DNA of 64,000 nt, taken from positions 1 to 64,000 of the forward strand of contig JALGVJ010000012.1 in assembly GCA_029838195.1 (NCBI GenBank), given 5' to 3'. Positions 9,031 to 63,963 of the stretch are shown here, piece by piece. Each line of letters starts with the position of its first letter. The first letter of the stretch is position 1. Below the pieces are notes generated by a model. The model was not told the DNA's origin, made no database searches, and saw only the letters and a program-made list of their open reading frames with translations. A program made the position numbers and the translations under genes. This DNA comes from Promethearchaeota archaeon. Lineage in GTDB: Archaea > Asgardarchaeota > Lokiarchaeia > Sigyniarchaeales > SOKP01.

Positions 9031-9552
9031 TAAATCTTTAATTCCTTCTTTATCTAATTCAAATAAAAATTTTTTTCATTAATCTAATGTAAAAGATGAC
9101 TTAATTAATTTAAAATTGTTGATAAAAAAATAAGAATAAGAATTTTTTATTACCTTTCCCTTTTTGATTCTCATGGTCATGCGTGAAATATTTATACCCC
9201 ATGAAACAAGAACTTACTTTCAAAATGGTCATTAAATCTTTTCTAAACGTATTTCAATCGCAATTGAACTCTAAAAACATTCACTTTCAGCTGAAATGAT
9301 CGATACCATTCATTTATTTTCCTGTCTTGAAAAAATAATCGAGAAATGTAAGAAAAATCTTTTTTTTCCAAAAATAAAAAATTACCTATTTCATTTTACC
9401 CTTAATCATGAAAATGACCATCATTCAGTTTCAAAATATTATTTGACTCAATGAAGTGCTCAAATCAATTATTTCCTCATTGATGTATTCCATTCTTTAA
9501 TACTGATAAAGAATTTTCCCTTTTATTAAACAAGTATTTAAACAAATAAACT

Positions 9553-9567
9553 GAAAGGTTTTTAAAA
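9553..9567 (+). promoter_or_regulatory. Putative BRE-TATA promoter of aIF1
   Basis: Purine-rich GAAAGG followed by TTTTTAAAA, about 70 nt upstream of the inferred start. Confidence 0.4.
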
Positions 9568-9636
9568 GAAAATTGTCTATTATTCGTTAGTATATTAAAA
9601 ATTAATTAATTACAATAAAGGAAGGAATAAAGAAAC

Positions 9637-9957
9637 ATTAAGGAAAACGAAAATATTTGTTCAATGTGCGGATTGCCGAAAGACTTGTGCCTCTGCGGCA
9701 GTTTGGATCAAGAAGAATCACGGGTTTCTATCTATAACGAAACGAGAAAGTGGGGAAAAGTCGTTACAATGGCGGAATTTAAAGGCAATACGAATATCAA
9801 CCTTGAGGAATTCCTATCTAAAGCCAAGAAAAAATTTGCTTCCGGTGGAACCGTACGTGGAAATGCCATTGAATTAAGGGGGGATCACCGTTTTAGGCTT
9901 AAGAAATTCTTAATGGATTTGGGCTATCCTGAAGAAAATATAATGATCAAGGAATAA
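9637..9957 (+). CDS. sui1: Translation initiation factor aIF1 (SUI1); probable non-AUG start upstream of the called ATG at 9664
   Basis: C-S-M-C-GLPKDLC-L-C zinc knuckle, RKWGKVVT, ASGGTV and IELRGDHR are SUI1 motifs. The first Cys codon (9658) lies upstream of the ATG. Confidence 0.9.
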   Translation: MKENENICSMCGLPKDLCLCGSLDQEESRVSIYNETRKWGKVVTMAEFKGNTNINLEEFLSKAKKKFASGGTVRGNAIELRGDHRFRLKKFLMDLGYPEENIMIKE

Positions 9958-63321: not shown

Positions 63322-63963
63322 CTATTTTTTTAATTCCCTTAACGTCATTTCAGCATTAGAACGATCCTCACCAGATAATTGTCCTAAATGAAATTTAATC
63401 TCGTCTCCATTTAAAAACATAATATCTTCAAATGCCAGTCTGCTGAAAAATCTAGTAATTTTATCAATTAATACTTTCAATGCGGGTTCCTTTAGCCGGC
63501 AAACATAAAAATATTGAATATTATTTTGAAAAAATTCATATGGAATTAAAAAAAGGCTTTTAAAATCTAATAATTTTGGTTTTTTAAAAAATTCAATTTG
63601 TTCCATCGGAGGAAAATAGTAAAACCTTGTTTCATCTCTAATGATATTTCTTATTCCCTTTACTCTCTTTTTAATATTATTAACAGAGAGTTTATTTTCA
63701 GGAAGATCTGTCAATTCCGCAAATAAAATTGAATAACCTTGTCGAATATCGCAAGATTGTGACAATATGACGCCATGAGCAAGAATAGGTTTTATTTTAA
63801 AATCTCCTTTTTCAGGTATTTCATTAATTTGAATGTTTTCTAACCAATAATTCTTAATATCATCGAAATTAACTTGATTAGGAGTTATTTTGGGAATATT
63901 TTGTAAAACATCTCCTTGTTGAGAAGGCCTTTCGGTACATTCGTGTCGTAAATCATATGTTAT
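63322..63963 (-). CDS. Hypothetical protein of the QGD...SQSCD type (possibly PemK/MazF-like fold); reading frame extends 66 codons upstream of the called TTG
   Basis: The open frame from ATA at 63963 reads ITYDLRHECTERPSQQGDVLQNIP...HGVILSQSCDI...RFYYFPP..LDF..RL..RFFSR. Confidence 0.5.
   Translation of the reverse strand: MTYDLRHECTERPSQQGDVLQNIPKITPNQVNFDDIKNYWLENIQINEIPEKGDFKIKPILAHGVILSQSCDIRQGYSILFAELTDLPENKLSVNNIKKRVKGIRNIIRDETRFYYFPPMEQIEFFKKPKLLDFKSLFLIPYEFFQNNIQYFYVCRLKEPALKVLIDKITRFFSRLAFEDIMFLNGDEIKFHLGQLSGEDRSNAEMTLRELKK

Follow-up and report, generated by a model that had tools for sequence, protein, structure and literature searches.

Does translation of archaeal initiation factor 1 (aIF1) in a Promethearchaeota archaeon of the class Lokiarchaeia begin at a canonical codon, and if it does not, why would a gene for a start-codon fidelity factor carry a weak start? 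The question arose from the first 64,000 nucleotides of contig JALGVJ010000012.1 (assembly GCA_029838195.1), which are referred to below as the window. The region 9637-9957 of the window is the only aIF1 of this genome, a SUI1-family protein whose N terminus carries a zinc knuckle (Table 1), and one copy of SUI1/aIF1 was found across the 4.5-Mb genome assembly. The read-through product matched Pfam PF01253 (SUI1) with an E value of 1.9e-13 and 51 bits (cut-off 25.5), and it matched NF002096 of NCBIfam with 107 bits (cut-off 98) in an alignment that ran from residue 7. Matches to aIF1 were found in 240 of the 251 genomes of the phylum.

The plus-strand frame reads TAA(9628) AGA AAC ATT(9637) AAG GAA AAC GAA AAT ATT(9655) TGT(9658) TCA ATG(9664) TGC(9667) GGA TTG CCG, and there is no ATG, GTG or TTG codon between the in-frame TAA at 9628-9630 and the first Cys of the zinc knuckle. 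The open reading frame listing calls aIF1 from ATG 9664 as a protein of 97 aa, and this call falls within the C-S-M-C of the knuckle. A preliminary description of this DNA had made both observations, that no canonical codon precedes the first Cys and that the called ATG lies inside a CxxC, and our re-reading of the sequence agrees with it. The CX2CGLPX3C-phi-C motif and its binding of zinc have been defined for archaeal aIF1, in which the motif is present in about 64% (PMC6237735), and all four Cys residues were invariant in our orthologue alignment. Since the full knuckle is obtained only if translation begins upstream of 9658, the product of ATG 9664 has an incomplete knuckle.

Table 1. Coordinates of the features at the aIF1 locus of the window, and of the Pfam-checked loci with near-cognate starts in the same genome
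Feature	Position	Strand	Remark
Purine-rich SD-like element AAGGAAGGA	9618..9626	+	10 nt before ATT 9637
In-frame TAA closing the upstream frame	9628..9630	+	
aIF1/SUI1 coding sequence	9637..9957	+	106 codons plus TAA
ATT, inferred start codon	9637..9639	+	context AAC ATT (A at -3, C at -1)
ATT for the conserved Ile preceding the first Cys	9655..9657	+	internal residue
Zinc knuckle C-S-M-C-G-L-P-K-D-L-C-L-C	9658..9696	+	form CX2CGLPX3C-phi-C
ATG within the knuckle	9664..9666	+	start chosen by the ORF caller
SUI1 domain	9715..9930	+	PF01253, residues 29-100 of the read-through from 9631
Nine Pfam-checked loci (contig:position)	C1:60159, C1:201358-, C6:48945-, C35:164342, C38:138223, C38:24573, C42:16674-, C43:8987-, C70:21770-		

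The start codon of aIF1

The contigs of two independent studies span 9509-9855 with zero differences, so ATT 9637 is real and no assembly error; the match was complete at 9637-9639 as well, the three positions for which the preliminary description had advised a look at the reads. An assembly or sequencing error, or a private mutation at this codon, was ruled out by these contigs together with a census of orthologues. The census covered 102 phylogenetically related orthologues, drawn from 12 genera of the Lokiarchaeia-type family to which this genome belongs; the locus was also gathered outside the family, from the rest of the class and from a further 50 genomes of the phylum. Within the family, the codon at the start position was ATT in 95 orthologues, ATA in 4 and ATC in 3, and it was ATG, GTG or TTG in none, which disposes of the possibility, raised in the preliminary description, that the orthologues carry ATG there. 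No canonical codon was found from the in-frame stop to the first Cys in 96 of the 102, and the six exceptions have a GTG that belongs to a conserved upstream block. Such uniformity goes far beyond what chance would give. On the other side of the first Cys, the first canonical codon lies at a median of about 50 codons downstream, with seven genes having none at all, and in most orthologues a start at this codon would delete half of aIF1. Furthermore, at least two in-frame stops were present in the 12 codons preceding the first Cys in 44 of the 102 orthologues. Read-through of the upstream stop, or insertion of selenocysteine at a TGA, was rejected on the grounds that the window has TAA and that these 44 orthologues have at least two stops to pass.

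The layout of the region is nearly invariant in the family (AAAGG TTG TGA NNN NNN NNN ATT AAA GAC GAC GAN ATT TGT), the GTGA block being followed by ATT at a distance of 9 nt in 93 family genomes and of 8 nt in two. The conserved GGTTGTGA block of other genera shares its register with AAGGAAGGA of the window, its 3′ end lying 9-10 nt before the start. When entropy was calculated per codon position over 80 distinct family sequences, the coding pattern set in exactly at the homologue of 9637. From the conserved ATT on, only the third codon position is free to vary, the first two being fixed. The three codons immediately before ATT vary at every position, and the AGG TTG TGA block before these is conserved at all three codon positions, and is thus a non-coding sequence element. 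Because the three-base coding signature begins at the homologue of 9637, the start is placed there and not at 9655 or 9664.

The conservation, the fixed distance to the SD-like block and the coding signature strongly support the need of aIF1 for a near-cognate start, as the preliminary description had held, and we place that start with high confidence at ATT 9637. The preliminary description had offered two ATT codons, of which 9637 was borne out and 9655 proved to be an internal Ile. ATT 9655 lies 27 nt from the SD-like block, and it was rejected as a start since the homologous Ile is also present in archaea with an ATG 3-6 codons upstream and since the coding signature begins earlier. In the public protein collection, aIF1 is present both as the 97-aa product of ATG 9664 and as a 100-aa NCBI product starting MCSMC, the latter being ATT 9655 translated as Met. 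Annotation has thus already employed a non-canonical start at this gene, and the 100-aa product is probably six codons too short.

Second copies of aIF1 were seen in 7 family genomes, in which a perfect GAGGTGA is found 8 nt before ATT or ATA AAA GA and the SD duplex reaches -12 to -16 kcal/mol; since the GTG within this SD is in frame, a gene caller would pick it. No match to the window aIF1 protein was obtained in 13 of 117 family genomes, and five of the 13 (93-100% complete) were searched again, with no aIF1 recovered by either a closer protein query or PF01253. In those genomes the aIF1 region may have been masked or left out of the bin, or it may be genuinely absent.

Near-cognate starts at other genes and in other lineages

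Near-cognate starts were also found at other genes of this genome. In nine genes (Table 1), the first ATG, GTG or TTG comes only after the Pfam domain has begun; these are the genes for an SDR, Dcm, a phosphodiesterase, a MinD-like ATPase, a Zn-ADH, two Ras-like GTPases, an ABC ATPase and an acyl-CoA synthetase. The Zn-ADH frame reads TGA ATT RAAVFEDV, 5 nt after GGTGA, and that of the MinD-like ATPase reads TAA AAG CTG KIAVSGKGGVGKT. PCNA, uS3 and Rpo7 of this genome were likewise checked and have near-cognate starts, and long open leaders are in excess genome-wide, pointing to more non-canonical starts. SD 5-mers were 2.8-fold enriched before ATT (26/676 vs 83/5978) in a comparison restricted to ATT codons without a nearby canonical codon, as the unfiltered version is confounded by codons adjoining real starts. 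By a rough estimate, ATT, ATA, ATC or CTG serves as the start of tens of genes, up to about 100. Within the window, the minus-strand frame 63322-63963 opens with TGA ATA ACA TAT and reaches its first canonical codon at 63765, 66 codons in; the leader from 63963, where the preliminary description had also suspected a non-canonical start, has strong in-frame coding potential and holds a candidate for such a start. A Pfam search of the open leaders at 63963 and 56933, both on the minus strand, gave zero hits.

The start of aIF1 was then compared across lineages. In Thorarchaeia (30 genomes, 16 genera) the codon is GTG in 16, CTG in 13, ATT in 1 and ATG in 0, and several of the genes with CTG have an in-frame stop two codons upstream. 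In four further Asgard families aIF1 starts at an ATA that is preceded by AGGAG(G). The codon is ATA, TTG or GTG in other genera of the order, with ATG in three genera, and the sister family has TTG, GTG or ATG in the same register relative to the SD-like block. The remaining sampled Asgard families start aIF1 at ATG. A search of the genome collection yielded 589 confirmed stretches, from which the best 80, mostly of non-Asgard archaea, were kept; unlike the gene studied here, aIF1 of these outgroup archaea starts at ATG in 73 of the best 80 of the 589 matches. Feedback through the start codon would thus not be general to aIF1, given that, Loki and Thor apart, most Asgard families use ATG, as do most other archaea. 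A sporadic case outside Asgard was seen in an Aenigmatarchaeota MAG, where GAGGTGG plus 6 nt is followed by ATA GCA GTT TGC and there are zero canonical codons upstream of the knuckle. The aIF1A gene of Thorarchaeia has an apparent conserved TTG start directly after GGAGGA (read-through WRIIL-SRRGK...), and would thus be a second initiation-factor gene with a fixed weak start in that class.

The above observations bear on a reading in which AUU 9637 is the start codon and only sets a low constant expression, or follows a habit of the lineage, with no feedback that depends on aIF1. In its favour, AUU, AUA, AUC and CUG starts occur behind SD-like motifs at many genes of the genome and the family, and the weak TTG of Thor aIF1A is conserved likewise. 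Relaxed usage throughout the lineage could explain the presence of the near-cognate codon at aIF1, but not its fixation. In counts of 30 loci each from the same family, PCNA had ATT in 2 (this genus only) and ATG in 28; uS3 had ATT in 6, ATG in about 16, TTG in 5 and ACG in 1; Rpo7 had ATT in 13 and ATG in 15, with switches even inside one genus; and aIF1A had ATG in about 27. Those PCNA and Rpo7 genes that have ATT carry a GGTG-type SD 7-9 nt upstream, which the ATG orthologues often lack, and in this genus PCNA gained AAGGTG along with the change from ATG to ATT. Near-cognate starts thus switch at PCNA, uS3 and Rpo7 and never at aIF1, where the codon is ATH in 102 of 102 genomes of 12 genera, and this difference argues for gene-specific selection at aIF1. 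The preliminary description had counted equally common AUU starts genome-wide, with no dependence on aIF1, as evidence against its reading; such starts do occur elsewhere in the genome, which weakens a claim of uniqueness, but the constancy of the start sets aIF1 apart. It is also at odds with a mere habit that independent lineages reached different weak codons on aIF1, and that aIF1 is a known AUU-rejecting factor (PMC4705826), for which reason some dependence of the AUU start on the level of aIF1 is hard to avoid. We consider constant low expression or habit unlikely, and from the comparison of these genes the weak aIF1 start is probably under gene-specific selection.

Positioning of the ribosome at the AUU codon

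No 16S gene was found in the genome itself, and the anti-SD was taken from the 16S of relatives, whose 3′ tail is GGAUCACCUCC. With this tail, the SD-like duplex energy at the window aIF1 is a moderate -5.8 kcal/mol, which is the 27th percentile of 1713 ATG genes (median -3.6); a typical family sequence gives -7.5 kcal/mol, and the value is about -4 in two genera. The spacing of GGAGG to ATG in this genome is 7-12 nt, equal to GTGA plus 4-9 nt. The spacing of GTGA is kept where it is out of frame, as in the genera with 8 nt and in the second copies, indicating that the element works as a sequence and not as a stop codon. The 1713 confident ATG starts have a Kozak-like context: 57% of them have A at -3 and 38% have C at -1 (against a background of about 10% C), and C at -1 is seen in genes with and without an SD. 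The AAC before ATT 9637 has both of these preferred bases. No conserved RNA structure was predicted around the aIF1 start. The sole initiator-type tRNA found has a CAU anticodon, and an initiator tRNA with an Ile anticodon was sought and not found among the about 15 tRNAs recovered by aragorn. A tRNA-Sec (TCA) is present in this set, which was obtained without intron handling, and most tRNA genes are probably intron-bearing or were missed by the program.

The same region could be read as a site where initiation on AUU is not SD-led, and either the mRNA is leaderless, with the A of AUU as its first base, or ribosomes reinitiate after the TTG-TGA or after a GTG mini-ORF. TATA-like hexamers peak genome-wide with their ends 23-26 nt before start codons, which suggests that the genome holds many leaderless mRNAs; a TATA-like sequence at aIF1 ends about 22-24 nt before ATT, and as this distance matches the genome-wide peak, the aIF1 mRNA could be leaderless as well. 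However, leaderless translation is strongly AUG-selective in studied systems, much more so than initiation led by an SD, and in bacteria SD pairing aids near-cognate starts (PMC8459731). As for reinitiation, an in-frame TTG-TGA "start-stop" is conserved in most family orthologues, and a GTG mini-ORF of 5 codons terminates at a TAA or TAG overlapping ATT (tATTAa) wherever it was traced by eye, that is, in the common types and in four divergent genera. The second codon of aIF1 varies (K, N or S) and always has A[AG] first, by which the stop of the mini-ORF is preserved. The weak SD pairing in two genera also speaks for initiation of another kind. On the opposite side, the distance from GTGA to ATT is kept even where GTGA is out of frame, as it is at 8 nt in two genera and the second copies, the genus of the window is without any upstream ATG, GTG or TTG, and the TTG and GTG are without an SD of their own at a workable spacing. 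Moreover, wherever an independent lineage has a near-cognate start on aIF1, a clear SD is found 6-11 nt upstream of it. Leaderless initiation and reinitiation are therefore improbable on balance, and we favour initiation of aIF1 led by the SD.

It is highly improbable that aIF1 of this genome starts at ATG 9664, a possibility that the preliminary description had itself raised and that gene callers have adopted: it is the only canonical codon, the 97-aa call stands in the public protein collection and the knuckle is absent in about a third of archaeal aIF1s (PMC6237735), but this ATG is private to the genome (the nearest relative reads AGA, and a canonical codon within three codons past the first Cys occurs in 1 of the 102 orthologues, this one), its distance to the SD-like block is about 37 nt, the Cys upstream of it and the K-E-N-E-N-I stretch are intact and in frame, and in the 101 other orthologues, where it is absent, a start at the next canonical codon would cost half of the protein.

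A possible feedback on start-codon stringency

The best explanation overall is that aIF1 has an AUU start through which it exerts negative feedback on its own synthesis, and we assign this reading a probability of roughly 0.55. In the proposed loop, the 30S subunit would be positioned by weak-to-moderate SD pairing upstream of AUU 9637, and Met-tRNAi (anticodon CAU) would initiate on this codon to give M-K-E-N-E-N-I-C..., with the predicted N-terminal peptide MKENENICSMCGLPK. The aIF1 of S. solfataricus destabilises AUU and other non-AUG initiation complexes in vitro (PMC4705826, PMC6237735). If the factor studied here likewise destabilises non-AUG complexes, more aIF1 would lower and less aIF1 would raise initiation on its own AUU, and the negative feedback would hold both the level of aIF1 and the stringency of start-codon choice at a set point. 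What the locus offers to such a loop is a suboptimal start site on the mRNA of aIF1 itself, for which no canonical codon could substitute without loss of the complete knuckle, and a weak start that is retained more strictly than at PCNA, uS3 or Rpo7, which switch, or at aIF1A, which has ATG. Stringency feedback predicts that the gene of a fidelity factor will have a weak start and that selection will keep it fixed. For the autoregulation taken by itself, which we derive from the published rejection of AUU by aIF1 and from analogy with infC and eIF1, the chances appear about even.

Two known systems invite comparison. The bacterial infC gene for IF3 has an AUU start with translational autorepression (Butler et al., 1987, as cited in PMC4705826), and eukaryotic eIF1 is autoregulated via an AUG in poor context (Ivanov et al., 2010, as cited in PMC6237735 and PMC4705826). 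As with infC, a fidelity factor that rejects non-canonical starts is made from a conserved AUU (here also AUA or AUC) behind an SD, and the weak codon is kept across relatives. In contrast to infC, where the feedback has been shown experimentally, that of the present aIF1 is deduced; IF3 and aIF1 are unrelated proteins, and AUU also starts many other genes in this lineage. The likeness to eIF1 lies in membership of the SUI1 family, the same fidelity function and a conserved weak start on the own mRNA. Eukaryotes, however, weaken the context of an AUG in scanning, whereas here the codon is near-cognate and placed by an SD-like element. In E. coli pcnB and other rare bacterial AUU genes, an SD plus AUU limits translation; such genes have no tie to start-codon fidelity and are closer to the other AUU genes of this genome than to aIF1. 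We know of no start-codon peculiarity reported for the studied aIF1 proteins of M. jannaschii, P. abyssi and S. solfataricus, and archaeal aIF1 was reportedly also the subject of work by Hasenohrl in 2009. The aIF1 of the window belongs to the same SUI1 fold family as the former three proteins, has the zinc knuckle as they do and, at about 100 aa, is of similar size (PMC6237735). Our search of the literature retrieved no paper on a non-AUG start of archaeal aIF1 and no archaeal counterpart of the start-site autoregulation of IF3 and eIF1.

A practical consequence is that, in these genomes, standard gene callers shorten aIF1 and tens of other genes or fail to call them. Start-site autoregulation of this kind is known in bacteria (IF3) and in eukaryotes (eIF1), and a case in Asgard archaea would be relevant to how eukaryotic control of initiation arose. 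In a more speculative and, in our judgement, rather doubtful extension, the near-cognate start of aIF1 would be the set point of a stringency homeostat, one that lets tens of genes form a "near-cognate regulon" and that is a possible forerunner of eIF1 autoregulation. If such a homeostat is at work, aIF1 would be made only when initiation on AUU works, so that the cell would be kept permissive for SD-led AUU, AUA and CUG starts, and the Asgard loop may be a prokaryotic precursor of the start-site autoregulation of eukaryotic eIF1.
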